UHGV virus genome: UHGV-2020843
Strand: one strand, 5' to 3'
Length of the DNA: 24,644 bases
Source of the DNA: a virus
The position numbers and the translations under genes were made by a program. A model generated the notes under the pieces. It was not told the origin of the DNA. It did no database searches and saw only the letters and a list, made by a program, of their open reading frames with translations. Below, piece after piece: positions 2,366 through 13,405 of the stretch; position 1 is the stretch's first letter; every line of letters starts with the position of its first letter.

Positions 2366-3339
2366 TACGCAGCCGCCTTTTTCTTGAAGAAAACCACCTC
2401 ACGAACCTGATCGCCGTTCATGAGCATGTCGTTAAAATCCCCGTTATCCGGGTAGTAGATGCTGATTTTTTCCAGGTCATTTTTTGCCAGTAAGTTGGCA
2501 TGGGCGCATTCCGTGGCCGCAGCCAATCCAGTGGCGCTGTTTACGTCTCGATCTGCGAAAATAATCAAATTTTTCACACCTGCAGGAACACGGAATTTCT
2601 TCATGAATCCGCTGGTCATGGTGGCCCAGGTGTTAACGTTGTATAGCTGCTTGCAGGAAAGAGCCGTTTCGATACCCTCGGCAATTCCGAGGGTCGTCGC
2701 TACCGGGAACATGCGAATAGCGACGGAACGGGCATGATCCAGATAGCTTTCGTCCTGAAGAGATTTCTGGCGCTTCGCTCCGGCAGAATCCCTTAGTTGG
2801 GCTTTCTGATTGCCGTCCAGTAAGGTTCTGTGCAGATAGCAAAGCTCGCCTTTGTCGTCAGTTGCGAGTGAATACAGACACTGGTAAACCTTACCGCCGT
2901 AGCGTTGTTTATCATTGAACTTCACTGCCTCTTGTGGGAGCTGATAAATTCCCCTGGCCTGCAGATATTCCGCCCCGGTAGTTCCTTTCAGGTTGACCAG
3001 TTTCGAAAATTTGGACAGAACCCGATCACGGGCGCTTACGGCATCTGAAGTGCGCGGAAACGCTTCGCGGGTAAAGTTATTACCAATCAGCTGGTCTATT
3101 TCCCTGCAAATTTCATTGAATGGCTTCCCTTGCGTCAGAGTGACAAGCTTCATTCCGTCACCGCTGCCGCAGGTACAGATCCATGTTCCCCGGCCGTCCC
3201 GGTCATCAATACGCAGCTTTCCCCGCGCACCACATACCGGACATTCGCCTTTAAAGTGATTTCTGGCATTAATGGGAGGTAACCCGAAGTGCTCAAAAAT
3301 CATTGCCCATTGACCTTTTGCCGCTTCTGCCGTCTTCAT
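2365..3339 (-). CDS. DNA primase (zinc-ribbon plus TOPRIM domain, phage/P4-type)
   Basis: N-terminal CPVCGARGK...WICTCGSGDG zinc-binding motif followed by TOPRIM-like IAEGIETALS and FADRD acidic motifs; ATGA overlap with helicase stop. Confidence 0.8.
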   Translation of the reverse strand: MKTAEAAKGQWAMIFEHFGLPPINARNHFKGECPVCGARGKLRIDDRDGRGTWICTCGSGDGMKLVTLTQGKPFNEICREIDQLIGNNFTREAFPRTSDAVSARDRVLSKFSKLVNLKGTTGAEYLQARGIYQLPQEAVKFNDKQRYGGKVYQCLYSLATDDKGELCYLHRTLLDGNQKAQLRDSAGAKRQKSLQDESYLDHARSVAIRMFPVATTLGIAEGIETALSCKQLYNVNTWATMTSGFMKKFRVPAGVKNLIIFADRDVNSATGLAAATECAHANLLAKNDLEKISIYYPDNGDFNDMLMNGDQVREVVFFKKKAAA

Positions 3340-4952
3340 GCTCGTTTTCCTAACTGCTGTTTGATATCGCTAATCGCTTTCTGTGCTTGCTGTACTGAGG
3401 ATGGGGCTGCCGTGCCTGATGCCTCCTGCAGGCGCTTGGCCTTCTCCTGCCCTTTCGCATACGCAATCAATTTGTGCCGGATGAAATTAGAGACAGTCGG
3501 GGTGATCTCCATCGGAAAATCGCTTAACCCGTTAGGCCACTCGTCAAACCGTTCGCGAAAGGTATTTGCGCACCAGCCATCGCTGACGGGCTTTTTCCCC
3601 TGCGATACGCGCTGACGCTGATAGAATTTGATCTGACTCCACCAGGCCTGTTTCTCTGCCTTAGTGGGCTGATGCTGGTTTTTACCCAGCTTTTTGAGTT
3701 TGCGGCCGGTGTCGGTATCGACGTCCTCACCGCCCAGCGGCTTATGCCCACATTTCGGGCATACATAGACGCCAGCTGGCTTCATGTAATGGCATTGAGA
3801 GCATTCGTGTGGCAGTTTTTCGGCCCGTTCCTCAGCTGCGCGGCGCGCGCTTTCCTCCATGCCGTCAGACTTACCGGGAAGATCGTCGTACTCGATTGAA
3901 TCCGGATAACCCAAACGGTGCACGGTACCGCTGTGATCGAAGATGAGGCAGGACTCTTTACCCGGTGCGGTGCGCAGGCCACGCCCGAGCGCCTGCAGCC
4001 AGCGAATTTCGCTTTTTGTTGGCCTGGCGTAGATGATGCAACGAACGTCACTATCGAAGCCGGCCACCAGAACGCCCACACTAACGATGATTTTCGTTGC
4101 ACCGGTTTCAAAGCGGTGAATGATGGTCTGGCGTTCATCCACTGGAGTGTCGGCGGTCATGACCTCAGCGTTAACACCCGCCAGGTTAAACTGAATTGTC
4201 AGGTAATTGGCGTGGGCTACGTTGACGCAGAAAGCGATGGTAGGCAGATCCCGGCCATTCTCCAGCCAGTTCTGTACGATGTCGCCCACCAGCGTAGAGC
4301 CGCACATGATTTCAGCCAGCTGCGTTTCGTTGTAATCGCTGCCGTACTCAAGCGATGCTTTGGTTTTAACACCTTTCAGATCCGGCTTAGTTGGCGCGTA
4401 AAATTCATATTTACTCAGATCGCCACGCTGAATTAACTCGCCGATGGTGGTGGGCTTAATCAGTCGGTCATAGTATTTGCCCAGGAACGGGGAAAACGGA
4501 GTACCCGACAGGCCAATCACCTTTACGCCTTTGCCGCGTAGACGGTCGATATCCTTCAGGATGCGTTTTTTACGCAGGTGTGCTTCGTCGATAATCAGCA
4601 GATCGATATTTTCAGGAAAAACACGACGAATAAGCGTATCGGCGCTGGCAATCTGAATTTTCCGGTCCGGATCGTAGTTCGGGTGATCCGCCCAGATATA
4701 ACCGATTTCATCCCCCGGTAATCCATACTCCACGAACCGATTAGCCGTCTGACCGATCAGGATGGTGTACGGTGCACAGAACAGGACGCGCATACCACGG
4801 CTGACAAACCCGGCAACGATGAAGGCCGCCAAACCCGTTTTACCGCTACCGGTTGGCGAATACACCATGAAGGTGTCGTTTGCCTTCCAGTCACGGCGCA
4901 ACATGTTTAGCGCTCGTTCCTGTGCAAAATTCGGCGTGATCGTCAGCTCCAT
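3336..4952 (-). CDS. Phage SF2 DNA helicase (DEAD/DEAH-box type)
   Basis: Walker A SPTGSGKT, Walker B IIDEAHL, C-terminal Cys4 motif CSQCH...CPKCGH; 538 aa; GGGGG ribosome-binding site upstream. Confidence 0.8.
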   Translation of the reverse strand: MELTITPNFAQERALNMLRRDWKANDTFMVYSPTGSGKTGLAAFIVAGFVSRGMRVLFCAPYTILIGQTANRFVEYGLPGDEIGYIWADHPNYDPDRKIQIASADTLIRRVFPENIDLLIIDEAHLRKKRILKDIDRLRGKGVKVIGLSGTPFSPFLGKYYDRLIKPTTIGELIQRGDLSKYEFYAPTKPDLKGVKTKASLEYGSDYNETQLAEIMCGSTLVGDIVQNWLENGRDLPTIAFCVNVAHANYLTIQFNLAGVNAEVMTADTPVDERQTIIHRFETGATKIIVSVGVLVAGFDSDVRCIIYARPTKSEIRWLQALGRGLRTAPGKESCLIFDHSGTVHRLGYPDSIEYDDLPGKSDGMEESARRAAEERAEKLPHECSQCHYMKPAGVYVCPKCGHKPLGGEDVDTDTGRKLKKLGKNQHQPTKAEKQAWWSQIKFYQRQRVSQGKKPVSDGWCANTFRERFDEWPNGLSDFPMEITPTVSNFIRHKLIAYAKGQEKAKRLQEASGTAAPSSVQQAQKAISDIKQQLGKRA

Positions 4953-5906: not shown

Positions 5907-5922
5907 ATTAGCGCCCTTAAAA

Positions 5923-6010
5923 ATACTTTAGGATTTGGATGATATTACCATAGTATTAATTTAGCAAGAATACTCTAGTGTTGAATGGAAAAAGCTTTTG
6001 TACTAAATTA
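5923..6010. promoter_or_regulatory. Immunity switch: three operator sites (5923-5936, 5945-5958, 5970-5983) with divergent PR-like and PRM-like promoters
   Basis: Three 14-bp sites each 2 mismatches from palindrome AATACTATAGTATT, spaced 22-25 bp. Minus strand -35 TTGCTA (5963-5968) and -10 TATCAT (5940-5945), 17-bp spacer, for cro. Plus strand -35 TTGAAT (5982-5987) and -10 TAAATT (6005-6010), 17-bp spacer, for cI. Confidence 0.5.
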
Positions 6011-6039
6011 ATCCGATCGTATTAACCAGAGGCAAAAAC

Positions 6040-6747
6040 ATGAGTGGAACGACTTTTTCGGACCGGCTAAGAGACAGCATGCAGAAGGCTGGGCTGACCC
6101 AAAGCCAGTTAGCTGAAGCAGTCGGAGTGTCACAGGGGGCAATTCAGAAACTTGTATCTGGTAAGGCAAAGTCGACAACTAAGCTTGTTCAGATAGCTAA
6201 TGTCCTTGGTGTTCGCCCTGAATGGTTAAGCGAAGGCGTTGGTGCGATCCGTAAATCAGATGATTTCCCTCCAGAAGAAAAGTGGAGCAAAGTCGAGACC
6301 TGGGATAGCAACACGCCTTTAGAATCTGATGAAGTGGAAGTCCCATTCCTTAAAGATATTGAGTTTGCATGCGGTAGCGGCAGAGTTATGGAAGAAGATT
6401 ACAACGGTTATAAACTGAGGTTTTCGAAGTCTACCCTGAGAAGAGTTGGAGCAAGCACAGATGGTTCAGGCATTATCTGTTTCCCGGCTGCCGGGAACAG
6501 TATGGAACCACTCATACCAGACGGTACAACAGTGGCTGTTAACATCGAAGACAAAAAAATCGTTGATGGAAAGATTTACGCGATCAATCAGGAAGGGTGG
6601 AAGCGGATCAAACTCCTATACCGGACAGGCCCGGATGAGTTGACTATCCGTAGCTATAACGCAGAAGAGTACCCTGATGAGGTAGTGAAGATGTCCAGCG
6701 TAGAGGTCGTTGGTAGAGTGTTTTGGACTTCTACAGTTTGGAACTAA
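6040..6747 (+). CDS. cI: CI-type phage repressor (N-terminal HTH, C-terminal S24/LexA-like peptidase domain)
   Basis: 235 aa; HTH LTQSQLAEAVGVSQGAIQKL; C-terminal AGNSMEP Ser motif and downstream Lys (KRIK), typical of autocleaving LexA/CI repressors; GAGG ribosome-binding site upstream. Confidence 0.85.
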   Translation: MSGTTFSDRLRDSMQKAGLTQSQLAEAVGVSQGAIQKLVSGKAKSTTKLVQIANVLGVRPEWLSEGVGAIRKSDDFPPEEKWSKVETWDSNTPLESDEVEVPFLKDIEFACGSGRVMEEDYNGYKLRFSKSTLRRVGASTDGSGIICFPAAGNSMEPLIPDGTTVAVNIEDKKIVDGKIYAINQEGWKRIKLLYRTGPDELTIRSYNAEEYPDEVVKMSSVEVVGRVFWTSTVWN

Positions 6748-6748
6748 G

Positions 6749-6770
6749 CCGGGGAAACCCGGTTTTTTTT
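6749..6770 (+). terminator. Intrinsic terminator after cI
   Basis: CCGGG-GAAA-CCCGG hairpin followed by T8, immediately after the cI stop codon. Confidence 0.65.
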
Positions 6771-6828: not shown

Positions 6829-6869
6829 AATACTATAGTATTGACGCGGGATTAATCCTCCCCTATTCT
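6829..6869 (+). promoter_or_regulatory. PL-like early promoter with perfect palindromic operator
   Basis: Perfect 14-bp palindrome AATACTATAGTATT (6829-6842) overlapping -35 TTGACG (6841-6846); 17-bp spacer; -10 TATTCT (6864-6869); about 30 bp upstream of ORF 6901. Confidence 0.5.
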
Positions 6870-7803: not shown

Positions 7804-8169
7804 ATGGATAATTTAACCAATACGTATCGCCGAAGAATTTTAAAAGCTGCGTTATTACGCCACCAGCGTAAAACCGGAAGCACCTGCATCATTATTAATA
7901 TGCCTAAAGGTGGAATAAACACAGTCGAATTAACAGAAATACTGCTTGATGGTTTGTTGAGACGATTCGAAAAGCTGGCTCTCAGTGAATACGGGAATAT
8001 CGACGGTGTAAAAGCCATCAGAGGAATTTACAGCAACGCCGTAGATGTGAATGGCAGCGGTGAGTTCCTGACAGAAAGCGGAAAGGCATTAATCGACGAT
8101 CTCATTGCTGAGCTGGTCGAATTTGCTAAGAAACAAAAATCAGTCACAGCGGAGACAAGCCATGAGTGA
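7804..8169 (+). CDS. Hypothetical protein (121 aa) with arginine-rich N-terminus
   Basis: ORF begins MDNLTNTYRRRILKAALLRHQRK; contiguous with flanking ORFs. Confidence 0.5.
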   Translation: MDNLTNTYRRRILKAALLRHQRKTGSTCIIINMPKGGINTVELTEILLDGLLRRFEKLALSEYGNIDGVKAIRGIYSNAVDVNGSGEFLTESGKALIDDLIAELVEFAKKQKSVTAETSHE

Positions 8170-8374
8170 TCAGACACCAATTATCACGCACGAACCAGTA
8201 AATATCGTGCTGACAATCGAGAACGGGAAAGTTATCCACGCGCGCCCGGTTCAGAACGGCGAGGTTACAGCATCGCTGGAGACTTTTTTATGGATGGCTG
8301 AACAAGCCGGTTACACGATCACCCCACCTGCAGGAGAGAAGGACAATGGCCCTGACAGCGATACGAATTCCTGA
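8162..8374 (+). CDS. Hypothetical small acidic protein (70 aa); candidate antitoxin partner of the following ORF
   Basis: ATG at 8162 with GGAG ribosome-binding site 7 nt upstream; overlaps upstream stop and overlaps downstream ORF by 29 nt. Confidence 0.45.
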   Translation: MSDQTPIITHEPVNIVLTIENGKVIHARPVQNGEVTASLETFLWMAEQAGYTITPPAGEKDNGPDSDTNS

Positions 8375-8567
8375 GTGGGTGCACCTGCAGGCGGTCCATG
8401 TCCTCCGCCAGTTCAGAGCCAGGCGGATTCATCCCTGCCGTATGCACGGCTCCGGAAACCTGAGCCTGAGGGTTAATCGCCGCTGGCGGCTGCTGTCCCG
8501 AGACGGCGGCCATAACTGGGAAGTAATGAGCCATGAACGATACAGCAAACTGAAGGACAGAAAATGA
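8346..8567 (+). CDS. Candidate RelE/ParE/HigB-superfamily toxin-like protein (73 aa)
   Basis: Segment GSGNLSLRVNRRWRLLSRDGGHNWEVMSHERY resembles the RelE/HigB core (recalled E. coli HigB GGNELRVVAMVFF...YIREVMTHKEYD); strong ribosome-binding site GGAGAGAAGGA; GC-rich relative to neighbours. Confidence 0.4.
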   Translation: MALTAIRIPEWVHLQAVHVLRQFRARRIHPCRMHGSGNLSLRVNRRWRLLSRDGGHNWEVMSHERYSKLKDRK

Positions 8568-8665
8568 AAGCGCTTTTCCTTTCCCTGCTGTTTGGCCTGT
8601 TATTGGTGGCCGTCGTTTTCGGCGCGCTGATTGAGTACAAATTTTTGATGGATTTCGGGAGTTGA
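8564..8665 (+). CDS. Small hydrophobic peptide (33 aa), likely membrane-inserted
   Basis: MKALFLSLLFGLLLVAVVFGALIEYKFLMDFGS; ATGA overlap with upstream stop; AAGGA ribosome-binding site. Confidence 0.4.
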   Translation: MKALFLSLLFGLLLVAVVFGALIEYKFLMDFGS

Positions 8666-8667
8666 TT

Positions 8668-8880
8668 ATGAAAACGGGACAACAACCAGCTTACCCATGC
8701 CCTCGCACTGATTCTCCTCAGGGTATGACATATCGCCAGTATCTTGTAAGTCAGCTCGCGCCCGTAATCGCTGCTCAGTTCTTCGAAAGTAGCGCATGGA
8801 CCGACTACGACGACATGGGCGGCTCTCTGATGATGATGGTCGACAGCATTATTGAAGCTGAAAAGGAGACAGCACAATGA
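8668..8880 (+). CDS. Hypothetical small acidic protein (70 aa)
   Basis: ATG at 8668 with GGGAG ribosome-binding site; the ORF track extends it to a TTG at 8662. Confidence 0.45.
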   Translation: MKTGQQPAYPCPRTDSPQGMTYRQYLVSQLAPVIAAQFFESSAWTDYDDMGGSLMMMVDSIIEAEKETAQ

Positions 8881-9275
8881 GCAAATCAGCAAAAGAGCTT
8901 TATACCGTACCTGAATGGATGCGCCCATACCTTACGTTATTCCAAAACACTGGAGGTAATGACGTTGAGGATCTGCTGCACGATGAAGACACCAATATGT
9001 TCGCAAATAGCATTCGGTACATGTTGATCGTGTCCGCTCGTTCACAATTCAGATTGCTGATGGATATGTATAAAAATGGGCAGATTATCGAGCTTGAAAC
9101 GATGAAAACAGACCCTGTTGGTGAAGATTATCAGTCAGCGATCGACATCTTGCGCGACAGAGCTGCTCGCGAACTCGATGGTGGTTTTCGCTCACATCAC
9201 AACGCCCTGATTTATGCAGCTAATGAACTGGAAAATGCCCAGGCCTTCGGGCGGGAGGTCAGCCATGAGTCTTGA
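8877..9275 (+). CDS. Hypothetical protein (132 aa)
   Basis: ORF with ATGA overlap to the upstream stop; no recognisable motif. Confidence 0.5.
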   Translation: MSKSAKELYTVPEWMRPYLTLFQNTGGNDVEDLLHDEDTNMFANSIRYMLIVSARSQFRLLMDMYKNGQIIELETMKTDPVGEDYQSAIDILRDRAARELDGGFRSHHNALIYAANELENAQAFGREVSHES

Positions 9276-9474
9276 TTGCGTACCCCTTTCTACGTACTGC
9301 AGGGACGCGGGGGAAACGGTAGAAGCCGTTAACAAACGGATACAAAGGGGGTTATGGAAGGAGGGAGTACATGTATTAAAAGTCGATGGCGTTAAAGAAC
9401 GCTGGATTGACTTAACGGAGGTTTCAAAGTGGGCAAGAAAGAACAAGGATCATTATCTCTCCCAAGAGGAGTAA
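9265..9474 (+). CDS. xis: Excisionase-like protein
   Basis: About 69 aa, immediately upstream of and overlapping the integrase; GGGAGG ribosome-binding site; small basic DNA-binding-like protein in the canonical xis position. Confidence 0.55.
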   Translation: MSLDCVPLSTYCRDAGETVEAVNKRIQRGLWKEGVHVLKVDGVKERWIDLTEVSKWARKNKDHYLSQEE

Positions 9475-10601
9475 CCATCCGCCAGCATAAAACTGGCGAC
9501 ACTCTGGTTATCACTTTCACATACAAAGGGGTTCTGTGCCGGGAGCCCCTCTCCAAAATGGAAGCAAACGCGCGCGGTGTGAAGTACGCCGAGCGCCTGC
9601 TCGGGGAGATACAGAACCAGATCGTCAGTGGCACCTTTGAATATGCGAAATATTTCCCCAACTCCAAAAAGCTGGAGCTATTCGGGGTGGTGAAGAAAAC
9701 CAAAAACATAAAGTCCTACCTGGACGAGTACCTCAAAATCTGCCAGAACCGCAACCTGTCCCCGTCGACTATAAATGGTTATGAAAAATGCCTGTCGGCA
9801 CTGTCAGCTCTGCATAAACTCCACGTGTCAGAACTGACGCCAGCGGTCCTTAAAAACTGGATAGCCAGCCGGAAAACAAAGCTGAAAACGACCAGGAATA
9901 ACCTTTCGTTTCTGCGCAGCGCAATCGATGAAGCTGTTACGGATGGCCTGCTGACCATTAACCCGGTAACCCTCGTCAGCGCCAGCCGGTACCACGTGAT
10001 CGACAGCAGCCCGAGCGCCGACGATTACGAGGTTGACCCGTTCACGCCAGCGGAGACCCTCGCCATTTACCAGAACTGCAGGTACCCGGAATGGGAAAAC
10101 CTGTTCCGCTTTGCTTTCAATACCGGTCTGCGGAGCTCCGAACTGTGCGCGCTGCGCTGGCCTGATCTCGACACCATCGCGAACACAGCCCACGTTCAGG
10201 CGGCCAGTGTCGTAGGGGTACTTAAAGGCACCAAGACAAAAGCCGGTACCCGCAAGGTGGAGCTGAACAGTGAGGCGCTGGCGGCCCTGCAGGCGCAGAA
10301 GCAATACACCTTTATGAAAAGTGAGTTCATATTCAGCGATCCGAAAACGGGAGAACCCTGGGCGAACGCCGACGCTATCCGTAAAAAAGCATGGGTGCCG
10401 ACCCTGAAAAAAGCTGGCGTGCGCTACCGTAACCCGTACCAGACGCGGCACACATTCGCCACCAAGCATATTAGCCAGGGCGTTAACCTCTTCTGGCTTG
10501 CCGGACAGATGGGCCACAAAGGGCCGGAAATGATATTCCGCAACTACGGTAAATACCTGGCTGAATATGACGGTAAAACCGCGATTTCAACCGCGCTGTA
10601 G
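9429..10601 (+). CDS. int: Tyrosine site-specific integrase (lambda Int-like)
   Basis: 390 aa; C-terminal catalytic region with RHTFATKH, GHKG and YGKY (R-H-R-Y type residues); located next to the attachment-site core. Confidence 0.85.
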   Translation: MGKKEQGSLSLPRGVTIRQHKTGDTLVITFTYKGVLCREPLSKMEANARGVKYAERLLGEIQNQIVSGTFEYAKYFPNSKKLELFGVVKKTKNIKSYLDEYLKICQNRNLSPSTINGYEKCLSALSALHKLHVSELTPAVLKNWIASRKTKLKTTRNNLSFLRSAIDEAVTDGLLTINPVTLVSASRYHVIDSSPSADDYEVDPFTPAETLAIYQNCRYPEWENLFRFAFNTGLRSSELCALRWPDLDTIANTAHVQAASVVGVLKGTKTKAGTRKVELNSEALAALQAQKQYTFMKSEFIFSDPKTGEPWANADAIRKKAWVPTLKKAGVRYRNPYQTRHTFATKHISQGVNLFWLAGQMGHKGPEMIFRNYGKYLAEYDGKTAISTAL

Positions 10602-10724
10602 CGGGGTAAATATTTCAAAATGTTGGACAGAATCAGGACGTTAGACAGACCTCAATATGCACGTAAAATGCACCTGAGGTATATCACAGTGAAAGAATTG
10701 TTTATTTTCAATGAGTTAAATGCC

Positions 10725-10760
10725 TTTCGGACGCGAGTTCAACTCCCGCCAGCTCCACCA
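10725..10760 (+). other. Attachment-site core: 36-nt copy of the 3' end of tmRNA (ssrA) ending in CCA, not a complete gene
   Basis: TTTCGGACGCGAGTTCAACTCCCGCCAGCTCCACCA matches the recalled 3' end of E. coli ssrA with one mismatch (A for G in the T-arm stem); sequence upstream does not resemble the ssrA body. Confidence 0.7.
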
Positions 10761-10807
10761 AAATTCTCCATCGGTGATTACCAGAGTCATCCGATGAAGT
10801 CCTAAGA

Positions 10808-10839
10808 GCCCGCACGGCGCAAGCCCTGCGGGCTTTTTT
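10808..10839 (+). terminator. Intrinsic terminator downstream of the ssrA 3'-end copy
   Basis: GCCCGCA...TGCGGGC stem followed by T6. Confidence 0.6.
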
Positions 10840-10963
10840 GTGCCCTCAATTTGTCCCGCGAAGTCCGAAGAGAACTAATTAAATCCGAACCTTTTAGGCC
10901 CATTGATAGGCCCAACGAAAAGCTCTATTGTTTACGTTGGGCCTAAACGCAGGGAGACTCCCC

Positions 10964-12205
10964 ATGGCAAGAAAAACCAAGCCGTTAACTGATACGGAAA
11001 TCAAAGCCGCCAAACCTAAAGATGCCGATTACCAGCTTTATGACGGTGACGGGCTTACTCTGTTAATCAAGTCCAGTGGCAGTAAGCTTTGGCAATTCCG
11101 TTACTATCGGCCTTTGACCAAGCAGCGAACCAAACAGAGCTTCGGTGCCTATCCTGCCGTCTCGCTTTCTGATGCACGTAAACTCAGAGCCGAATCTAAA
11201 GTTTTATTGGCGAAAGACATTGATCCTCAGGAACATCAGAAAGAACAGGTGAGGAATTCTCAAGAGGCCAAAACCAATACCTTCTTGTTAGTTGCCGAGC
11301 GTTGGTGGAATGTGAAGAAAACCAGCGTAACAGAGGACTATGCCGACGATATCTGGCGCTCGCTTGAGAGAGATATTTTCCCGGCAATCGGTGATATCAG
11401 TATCACTGAGATTAAGGCTCATACTCTGGTTAAAGCAGTTCAGCCGGTTCAGGCCAGAGGTGCATTAGAGACTGTTCGCCGCCTTTGTCAGCGTATTAAC
11501 GAAGTCATGATTTATGCGCAGAACACAGGCCTGATTGATGCTGTTCCTAGTGTAAATATCGGAAAAGCTTTCGAGAAACCGCAAAAGAAAAACATGCCAA
11601 GCATCCGGCCGGATCAACTTCCGCAGCTAATGCACACCATGCGTACGGCAAGTATCAGCATGTCCACAAGATGCCTGTTCATGTGGCAACTTCTAACCAT
11701 CACCCGCCCTGCCGAAGCTGCTGAGGCTCGATGGGATGAGATCGATTTCAATGCTAGCGAATGGAAAATTCCTGCAGCTCGAATGAAGATGAACCGGGAC
11801 CATACGGTTCCACTATCTGATGGGGCTCTTGCTATTCTGGAAATGATGAAGCCTCTCAGTGGTGGCCGAGAATTTATCTTTCCTAGCCGTATCAAGCCCA
11901 ACCAACCAATGAATAGCCAAACAGTGAATGCAGCACTCAAGCGTGCTGGCTTAGGAGGTGTACTTGTTTCACACGGCTTGCGTTCTATCGCCAGTACGGC
12001 ACTCAATGAGGAAGGATTTCCACCTGATGTCATTGAAGCAGCGCTTGCTCATGTAGACAAAAATGAGGTGCGTCGCGCTTATAACCGCAGTGATTATCTT
12101 GAGCAACGTCGTCCGATGATGCAATGGTGGGCTGATCTCGTAAAAGCAGCAGATAGTGGTAGCATCGTTTTAACTCATTTGAGCAAAATTCGTCTTGTCG
12201 GATAA
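10964..12205 (+). CDS. intA: P4-type tyrosine integrase IntA
   Basis: 413 aa starting MARKTKPLTDTEIKAAKPKDADYQLYDGDGLTL; AGGGAG ribosome-binding site; C-terminal HGLRS...AHVDKNEVRRAYNRSDY catalytic region. Confidence 0.9.
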   Translation: MARKTKPLTDTEIKAAKPKDADYQLYDGDGLTLLIKSSGSKLWQFRYYRPLTKQRTKQSFGAYPAVSLSDARKLRAESKVLLAKDIDPQEHQKEQVRNSQEAKTNTFLLVAERWWNVKKTSVTEDYADDIWRSLERDIFPAIGDISITEIKAHTLVKAVQPVQARGALETVRRLCQRINEVMIYAQNTGLIDAVPSVNIGKAFEKPQKKNMPSIRPDQLPQLMHTMRTASISMSTRCLFMWQLLTITRPAEAAEARWDEIDFNASEWKIPAARMKMNRDHTVPLSDGALAILEMMKPLSGGREFIFPSRIKPNQPMNSQTVNAALKRAGLGGVLVSHGLRSIASTALNEEGFPPDVIEAALAHVDKNEVRRAYNRSDYLEQRRPMMQWWADLVKAADSGSIVLTHLSKIRLVG

Positions 12206-12448
12206 AATATTTATCAGCCCAGCTCTCTGGGCTGATATTTCTAAAAGATCGCACTAAATAGCTACGCGGAATAGTGCTCTACTTTCGTTTAGCCCTTTCA
12301 GAGGTAAGACATTAGGGCAATTTCACTGTATGACTGCGCAGTCATCGAGTCTGTGGGGTGTTGCTCCTTTTGCAACGTATCACTTGTCAATAAATAGAAA
12401 GTGTAGATGTATTAGGCGCAGCTATTTAGTCTATATGGCAAGTAGTAA

Positions 12449-13405
12449 TTATTTACTTCTTTTTTTTCTACGAACAGCGCTATCGAAAGCTTGTTTTACA
12501 TCTTCATTTTTTAAAGACCATTGATTTAAAATAGTATCAACCAAAGCATCTTGACTCATTGTTGCTACACGATATTTTTTATTTTGATTATTTATCTCAA
12601 ACTCTGACATTTGAATAAAATCCCATAGCGGTTCGATAAGTTCATTAACTGCTACAACCTTATTTTTCCACCCATCATTCGGAACAGAGTCATTAATTAG
12701 CTCAACCAACTTCAGTTGAATGATATGGTACACTTCCGCTTTGCTTTTGCCACCCTTCTTTCCTGCACTCCGCCTGACTTCTGATAATTTTTTTTGATTA
12801 CAAACAGAGATGTTAAACCAAGTCATACCTATGCACTTATCAAATAACTCCGCAGCCCGATGAAATGCTTTAAAGGCAACGTTTTCATTTTCAGACATGA
12901 TAGATTTTCCCCAGAAAAAAGAGATTGAGGCGAACATAAGGTGTGCCTTGAAAATGTCATTAATGGAAAATGGCTCGATAACAAGAGGTAAAAACGTTTC
13001 CTTGGTAAGGTTTGAACTTAGATTTTTCCAGCATTCTTGAGCTGGATCATATAATTCAGTGTATTCTTCCTTTATCTCCAGTTGCCCATTCACTGTATGG
13101 TGCCTTGTTTCCCATGGTACATCGCAGGAATATAACCTCACACGAGTACCTATTTTCTCAGAGCTCCAGAATTGCTCTCGCATTCTGCCTAGCTCAATCC
13201 GTATTTCCGGATGATCTTCCTCTAGAACATCAGTATCCACCGCCCATTCGCATTCGGACATGTGATAGGCGAGATCACGTCGTTTTCTACAAATTTGTTC
13301 ATAAAAATCATTCAGAGAAATCATAAAACCACCATAAATCAATGTATTAGAGGTTGTAAAAATTGTATTTTTGGTACATGGGTTTTTTGCCTTAAAGATA
13401 CCCAT
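12449..13405 (-). CDS. yfjH: Uncharacterised island protein YfjH (318 aa from ATG at 13405; alternative start at 13324)
   Basis: AT-rich ORF between intA and alpA, on the opposite strand; position and length match recalled CP4-57 yfjH. Confidence 0.65.
   Translation of the reverse strand: MGIFKAKNPCTKNTIFTTSNTLIYGGFMISLNDFYEQICRKRRDLAYHMSECEWAVDTDVLEEDHPEIRIELGRMREQFWSSEKIGTRVRLYSCDVPWETRHHTVNGQLEIKEEYTELYDPAQECWKNLSSNLTKETFLPLVIEPFSINDIFKAHLMFASISFFWGKSIMSENENVAFKAFHRAAELFDKCIGMTWFNISVCNQKKLSEVRRSAGKKGGKSKAEVYHIIQLKLVELINDSVPNDGWKNKVVAVNELIEPLWDFIQMSEFEINNQNKKYRVATMSQDALVDTILNQWSLKNEDVKQAFDSAVRRKKRSK

Follow-up and report, generated by a model that had tools for sequence, protein, structure and literature searches.

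Locus and coding status of the 73-aa ORF

Judged from its gene content, the stretch of 24,644 nucleotides (nt) analysed here as UHGV virus genome UHGV-2020843 (hereafter the window) contains the immunity genes and the early genes of a lambdoid/HK97-like prophage. On its plus strand, three short open reading frames (ORFs) follow each other and encode an acidic protein of 70 amino acids (aa), a 73-aa protein and a hydrophobic 33-aa peptide (Table 1). The middle ORF, referred to below as the ParE_like gene, is the subject of this study. From the letters alone, the initial annotation had proposed that it encodes the toxin of a RelE/HigB-like module embedded in a prophage early operon, with the 70-aa protein as possible antitoxin and the 33-aa peptide as a coupled component. 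We recovered all three ORFs, the 29-nt overlap of the first two (8346-8374), the ATGA junction of the last two (8564-8567) and the location in a prophage early operon. We tentatively favour another reading of the module, in which the ParE_like gene would be a stand-alone phage early gene for a miniature protein of the RelE/ParE fold, most likely a RelE-like mRNA nuclease, and not one half of a toxin-antitoxin (TA) pair.

The ParE_like ORF is a genuine, strongly constrained phage gene. Selection was assessed on 104 homologous 222-nt ORFs from homologous loci, 82 of which were distinct. The annotated frame had a median ratio of nonsynonymous to synonymous substitution rates (dN/dS) of 0.06 at a dS of 0.77 and was free of stops in all 82 distinct homologues; of the five other frames, four had a ratio above 1 and all five contained stops among the homologues. 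A tblastn search confirmed 537 copies in viral contigs. The dN/dS of the 70-aa ORF was 0.19. The GC-rich character of the ORF, which had raised the concern of an out-of-frame artefact, is real: GC content reaches 0.60-0.65 against 0.32-0.46 upstream (150-nt windows), and GC at third codon positions is 0.68 against 0.27-0.43 in the upstream genes. A spurious ORF, non-coding or read out of frame in a GC-rich, overlapping stretch shadowed by a 71-aa antisense ORF, is nevertheless refuted by a constraint seen in no frame but the annotated one, the 82 stop-free alleles set against stops in the other frames, the confirmed copies, and the family match and confident fold described below.

Three further readings of this stretch were dropped. 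The antisense ORFs at 8319-8534 (71 aa) and 8473-8928 (151 aa), both on the minus strand, are not conserved: many homologues have stops in the reverse frames over the ParE_like gene. Both ORFs look as if they had arisen as by-products of a GC-rich coding strand. A structured RNA was discarded, as an Rfam search of 8162-8665 returned no RNA family. A programmed frameshift joining the 70-aa and 73-aa ORFs would require the ribosome to shift by +1, and database entries with extended N-termini resemble gene-call extensions.

Table 1. Genes and sites of the prophage early region in the window
Feature	Position	Strand	Basis or remark
Q-type antiterminator, toprim primase and helicase genes	window	-	Immunity/early region genes
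Cro-like gene	leftward from ~5907		
CI-type repressor gene	6040-6747	+	Pfam HTH_3 + Peptidase_S24, LexA-like
Intrinsic-terminator-like hairpin + T-run	6746-6765	+	Directly after the repressor gene
Operator-like perfect palindrome AATACTATAGTATT	6829-6842	unstranded	Overlaps the -35 hexamer of the 6841-6869 promoter
Sigma-70-like promoter TTGACG-17-TATTCT, presumed pL-type	6841-6869	+	Consensus match
121-aa ORF (o121), function unknown	7804-8169	+	phrog_1737; upstream of the 70-aa ORF
70-aa acidic ORF (o70), function unknown	8162-8374	+	phrog_340; real gene, frequent but non-obligate neighbour
73-aa ORF (ParE_like gene), feature under study	8346-8567	+	Pfam PF24732 ParE_like; phrog_1525
33-aa hydrophobic ORF	8564-8665	+	Variable neighbour; ATGA-coupled to the 73-aa ORF
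Xis-like ORF	9214-9474	+	Same operon
Tyrosine integrase gene	9429-10601	+	Pfam Arm-DNA-bind_2 + Phage_integrase; ends the operon
Terminator-like site	10821-10835		After xis-int

Family, predicted fold and genomic neighbours

The assignment of the 73-aa protein to RelE/ParE/HigB-like proteins was confirmed by a profile search and by the predicted fold. Pfam PF24732 ("ParE-like toxin domain") matches it at positions 2-67 of the 67-position profile with 70 bits (E 1.7e-19), well above the gathering threshold of 24.4 bits, and all 73 full matches in the protein database carry this domain. The motif that had been singled out, LSLRVN-RRWRLL...NWEVMSHERY, proved in alignments to be the conserved core of the family, IP..V..KA...L.L.V...WRLLS...W.LMSHE.YN, shared by the window protein and PF24732. 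In PHROGs the protein falls into PHROG 1525 (function unknown); the NCBIfam search with the 73-aa protein gave no match, and PADLOC gave none at E <= 1 for the 73-, 70-, 33- or 121-aa proteins. When 1.84 billion representative proteins were searched with a profile, the yield was only about 107 clusters at 50% identity, nearly all of about 70 aa, and in length, core and occurrence in phages and prophages the window protein is a full member of PF24732 and PHROG 1525. The earlier description of its function as unrecognised holds in part: Pfam and RefSeq/PGAP already label such proteins as ParE-like (near-identical ones are entered as "ParE family toxin-like protein"), but literature searches on the family name, the Pfam accession, and RelE-like phage/host-shutoff and orphan-toxin themes found no functional study, and no characterised member of PF24732 was found. 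The RelE/ParE-like identity is thus prior knowledge held in Pfam and RefSeq; what is added here is the occurrence as an antitoxin-less single-gene phage cassette and the shortened fold.

The AlphaFold2 model of the 73-aa protein, built with 40 homologues in the alignment, is confident, with a predicted local distance difference test score (pLDDT) of 87. Its order of elements is beta(3-5), alpha(10-24), a beta bridge at 31-32, beta(39-42), beta(47-51), beta(58-62) and alpha(63-71). The model thus has the antiparallel beta-sheet, N-terminal helix and C-terminal helix of the RelE/ParE superfamily, and its structural neighbours are RelE/ParE toxins. The best Foldseek matches in the PDB were YafQ, RelK, YoeB, GraT and HigB, all of them ribonucleases (RNases), with weak scores (E 0.13 or worse). 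Compared with the canonical toxins, the protein is shorter by about 20 residues and has one N-terminal helix in place of two. Arg48, in strand beta3, is the sole invariant residue across 50 diverse family members, and Pro9, Ala16, His63 and Tyr66 are conserved in at least 90% of them; the C-terminal helix begins with the segment that holds His63 and Tyr66. Members are without exception strongly basic (median isoelectric point, pI, 10.4), the window protein having a pI of 11.8 and a net charge of +11.

The surroundings of the gene were compared across 113 loci with close relatives, taken from 30 species genomes, 80 viral contigs and annotated phages. A gene of the 70-aa type lies directly upstream in 77 loci and is absent from 27, where a 135-140-aa homologue of the window's 121-aa ORF abuts the ParE_like gene. 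The 29-nt overlap occurs in 95 loci, with both types of upstream gene, and both types end in ..SDTNS. This is because codons 1-10 of the ParE_like gene, which are conserved, also serve in the +2 frame as the end of the upstream genes, up to a TGA inside CCTGAGTGG; the sequence 5' of the start codon varies by context, and nucleotide similarity begins at the start codon itself. Read from these alignments, the overlap is a passive by-product and no sign of partnership. The ATGA junction is retained in 92 loci though the following gene changes between at least five kinds, including a 31-33-aa peptide (about 22 loci), a 74-aa protein (about 26), a 140-aa protein (36) and a 209-aa protein (13), with others elsewhere.

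The ParE_like gene was found in 52 records of the phage collection and a homologue of the 70-aa gene in 30, with both in just 8; in 22 Stx-type and phiP27-type phages, the 70-aa gene is followed by an unrelated ORF and the ParE_like gene is absent. Megablast matches to other phages span the 73-aa ORF almost exactly, DNA similarity starting and ending there, and ParE_like alleles that are 93-97% identical to that of the window adjoin o121 alleles of 30-47% and o70 alleles of 48-51% identity. By these comparisons, the ParE_like gene travels as a single-gene cassette without a dedicated adjacent antitoxin. The 70-aa ORF, missing from part of the loci and present in phages that lack the ParE_like gene, was therefore rejected as a dedicated antitoxin, and the two- or three-gene module built on it is not supported. 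The 33-aa peptide was likewise rejected as a partner, four or more other genes taking its place elsewhere.

The features expected of a type II TA system are largely missing from the window. Neither the 70-aa nor the 33-aa ORF is consistently co-inherited with the ParE_like gene. No Pfam or NCBIfam domain was found in the neighbouring 121-, 70-, 33-, 72- and 132-aa proteins, and thus no antitoxin DNA-binding domain of the ribbon-helix-helix (RHH), helix-turn-helix (HTH), PhD/YefM or AbrB kind. The 70-aa protein was modelled poorly by AlphaFold2 (pLDDT 65); the model combines a beta-hairpin with a single helix and an acidic tail that is disordered, and it contains neither RHH nor HTH, in agreement with what the initial annotation had remarked on its presumed antitoxin. 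An autoregulated promoter of the gene's own was not found either, by a simple consensus scan that is a weak test.

Members with lower identity (35-53%) occur in phage regions whose genes are unrelated to each other: close to a holin, behind an Nmad5-domain gene, in Serratia phage OS31 behind a ParB-like gene, in a Klebsiella phage beside Kil, among particle-associated genes in a 92-kb Yersinia phage, and between ArdA and an integrase plus RNA polymerase in a T7-like temperate phage. In Escherichia phage KMB41 (Murrayvirus), a member is located just upstream of the holin-lysozyme lysis cassette, and no integrase is found among the 64 annotated features of this genome. Two virulent jumbo phages, Klebsiella phage RaK2 and Yersinia phage fHe-Yen9-04, are also represented by members in the BFVD. 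Because an addiction module makes no sense in integrase-less or virulent genomes, the family would have to serve the infection itself.

Early-left operon, proposed function and alternatives

The operon that contains the ParE_like gene is the early-left (pL-type) one, and within the prophage the gene comes after that of the CI-type repressor and before xis-int. The repressor, whose counterpart in a homologous prophage is annotated as 'LexA family protein', is presumably SOS-cleavable. The terminator-like hairpin behind its gene would separate lysogenic repressor transcription from the early-left operon, in which plus-strand ORFs are tightly packed from the putative promoter to xis-int. This promoter is the only plus-strand promoter-like site between the repressor gene and 10642, the simple consensus scan having found no other sigma-70-like site on that strand between 6870 and 10640. 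The pattern AATAC-N4-GTATT, with at most one mismatch, occurs only at the palindrome that overlaps its -35 hexamer and at four sites in the repressor/cro intergenic region (5922-6023). The operator-like palindromes are thus arranged, as far as the consensus matches tell, in the classical oR/oL layout of lambda. A weaker second operator-like site was noted at 6854-6867.

Since the operon promoter overlaps a repressor-operator palindrome, the ParE_like gene should be silent in the lysogen. A role in abortive infection by the lysogen, which had also been suggested, is unlikely, given that a terminator and an operator-bearing promoter precede the gene and that its product has no PADLOC match. In the reading that we favour, the protein would be made only after SOS induction or on infection, and the repressor would stand in for the antitoxin. 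The very basic protein would most likely bind the ribosome and mRNA and cut the mRNA as RelE, YoeB and HigB do, with Arg48, His63 and Tyr66 as proposed catalytic residues at the topological positions of RelE R61, R81 and Y87, the catalytic roles of which have been described (PMC2807027). Ribosome-dependent mRNA cleavage is favoured because of the positions of these three residues, the hhalign pairing discussed below, the structural neighbours from the RNase branch, and a positive charge that fits RNA binding. The expected effect would be that translation is damped or re-programmed early in lytic growth, the protein acting as an early effector on a conserved host target.

Several observations weigh against this reading. 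Sequence searches of the PDB, with the 73-aa protein and with the family profile, gave chance matches only. Hhalign repeatedly pairs Arg48 with RelE R61 and YoeB R65, but weakly (E 0.012-0.036, probability below 4%); the YoeB sequence was verified at 99-100% identity, and these alignments serve as leads only. The general base of YoeB, Glu46, has no conserved counterpart in the family. Only consensus matches underlie the promoter and operator calls. At 114 of 130 ParE_like loci, the ParE_like gene is preceded on its own strand by an o121-like gene, and in Cronobacter phage ENT39118 the two have stayed neighbours despite divergence to about 58-60% identity. The 121-aa protein, encoded by the most consistently linked upstream gene in this lineage of phages, is the only remaining partner candidate and could, as a minority possibility, be an unconventional antitoxin.

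It is therefore conceivable, though in our view unlikely, that the ParE_like gene belongs to a genuine type II TA pair with an unconventional antitoxin, either the 121-aa protein (phrog_1737) or, in this prophage, the acidic 70-aa protein, serving prophage stabilisation or the abortion of superinfection. Besides the linkage just described, 16 of the 19 phage records with o121 also carry the ParE_like gene, the ORFs are in tight translational coupling, and the 70-aa protein (pI 4.3) has a disordered C-terminal tail that would neutralise the +11 protein beside it. Antitoxins evolve faster than toxins, and on that account the discordant identities of the neighbours are not fatal to this explanation. 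It is countered by the erratic distribution of o70, by the absence of o121 from all distant (53% identity or less) family members, and by its presence without a ParE_like gene in Fels-1, YP3 and Fostie. Furthermore, the neighbours have no DNA-binding or known antitoxin domain and no promoter of their own was found, the acidic ..SDTNS tail results from the reading frame alone, some members come from phages with no annotated integrase, in which an addiction module would be pointless, and the operon is predicted to be repressed in the lysogen. The 121-aa protein and its profile have no Pfam or PDB relative; a marginal PDB match of the profile to the anti-CRISPR AcrIIA5 (6lkf_A, E 0.033, 43 residues) is probably due to chance.

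A stand-alone early gene might also encode a ParE-type gyrase poison, which would block host replication or provoke the SOS response to reinforce induction. This is suggested by the name given in Pfam and by PGAP, and the H-E-R motif at the C-terminal helix resembles ..LHERMD.. of RK2 ParE, a resemblance that provides a lead only. The structural comparison points elsewhere: ParE ranks below the RNase branch, no canonical ParE entry appears in the top list of Foldseek matches to the PDB, where the sole ParE-labelled entry is 6n90 ("YoeB/ParE toxin"), and the second N-terminal helix that ParE toxins have is missing from the model. No hhalign alignment was obtained between the family and RK2 ParE. 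The conserved Arg/His/Tyr triad and the extreme basicity better fit an RNA enzyme; such a conserved set is not generally known from ParE toxins, and the ParE_like gene has no partner of the ParD or PaaA2 type as known from ParDE and PaaA2-ParE2. We consider a gyrase poison less likely than a RelE-like mRNA nuclease, and quite unlikely by itself.

A third alternative, to which we assign a similarly low probability, is a non-toxic binder of the RelE fold that functions in counter-defence or regulation, with the ribosomal A site or host TA components as its target, so that RelE-type abortive-infection toxins would be blunted, or as an RNA-binding regulator. Such a role would suit the early accessory and anti-defence neighbourhoods with ArdA and Kil, the occurrence in temperate phages as well as in phages without an annotated integrase, and a dN/dS that fits a conserved host target; the absence of an antitoxin would be expected of a harmless protein. 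On the other hand, catalytic-type positions are occupied by an invariant Arg and by a His and a Tyr that are nearly so, as would be expected of an enzyme, and there is no match to a PADLOC or anti-defence family. A generalisation to the whole of PF24732 is comparably doubtful: the family may be a phage-specific, antitoxin-free miniature RelE-fold class, active early in temperate and virulent phages, whose members would be either A-site RNases re-programming translation by a widespread RegB-like strategy or, less ordinarily, catalytically tuned binders of the A site or of TA components that disarm host abortive-infection toxins of the RelE/HigB type.

Comparison with known systems separates the family from the established toxins. 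Unlike RelE, YoeB, HigB and YafQ, ParE_like proteins have no sequence relationship detectable in the PDB; their genes are not accompanied by a conserved antitoxin gene or an autoregulated promoter, and they are confined to phages, some of them without an annotated integrase. The closest analogy for the proposed mode of action is RegB of phage T4, an early endoribonuclease of RelE/YoeB-like fold that has no known antitoxin and acts on mRNA at or near the ribosome (PMC3014915), and which shows that such a strategy exists. RegB differs from the 73-aa protein in having 153 aa, an extra helix and two catalytic histidines; the two have no sequence relationship, and RegB was absent among the fold matches of the 73-aa model. 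The same niche is occupied in lambda by the genes of the exo-xis region and Kil, which are likewise small, non-essential, repressor-controlled early-left genes, some of which harm the host or shift the balance between lysis and lysogeny (PMC3824215, PMC10869804). Their folds and sequences are unrelated to ParE_like, a family member adjoining kil in the Klebsiella phage.

If the ParE_like gene indeed acts as a stand-alone early gene, the labels "ParE family toxin" and "putative toxin-antitoxin system protein" are misleading, as they would denote a viral early effector and no TA module. ParE_like is probably a mislabelled family of phage effectors. Its use of a 'toxin' fold as a viral weapon or for counter-defence would set it apart from addiction modules, and it would provide a candidate host-takeover function in the poorly understood, exo-xis-like accessory region of the early-left operon of lambdoid prophages in Enterobacteriaceae. 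The family raises the questions of how small a RelE-type ribosome-dependent nuclease can be, and of how phages use antitoxin-free toxin folds with the repressor as antidote; being small, highly conserved and only about 70 aa in length, it is a tractable system for both. Should the protein be harmless or a plain TA toxin, the matter would be one of routine annotation.

Further observations on the family and the window

Two genuine 198-aa proteins, P0167 and P0172, which are 39% identical over their full length, consist of an N-terminal domain of about 135 aa of unknown nature fused to ParE_like. This N-terminal domain is unrelated to the 121-aa protein, and a Rosetta-stone link between the two was therefore dropped. 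The gene for P0167 is located at 3001-3597 of its contig (L131; NCBI GCA_001244175.1, LK934437.1), in surroundings that resemble a cassette array with Gp49/HigB-like, DHFR and small multidrug-resistance genes. In three metagenome contigs (L117-L119) from an apparently temperate T7-like phage, ArdA, ParE_like and tyrosine integrase genes are found just upstream of a single-subunit RNA polymerase gene.

Records assigned to non-enterobacterial hosts, namely Aeromonas phage AsXd-1 (L003), Elizabethkingia phage EKP1 (L127) and a contig of Chryseobacterium sp. 18061 (L029), contain ParE_like proteins 73-97% identical to that of the window, with a DNA match of 94% to the window gene in AsXd-1. The host assignments or the sample purity of these records may be wrong.

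Downstream in the window, the C-terminal part of a 132-aa ORF (8877-9275), about 55 residues with ..DYQSAIDILRDRAARELDGGFR..NELENAQAFGREVSHES (phrog_36586), recurs in the form of 64-aa and 103-aa proteins that are encoded directly after the ParE_like gene in other prophages (e.g. L072). The segment is a shuffled domain with no assigned function. Immediately behind the prophage integrase gene, sub-threshold Rfam matches were found to part of a transfer-messenger RNA (tmRNA) at 10669-10760 (21 bits against a gathering threshold of 47) and to IsrM at 10751-10839; ARAGORN detected no intact tmRNA in 10000-13000. A second integrase gene, of the P4 type, is present at 10928-12205. Taken together, the region 10669-12205 looks like the remnant of an ssrA-type attachment site with two integrative elements in tandem.

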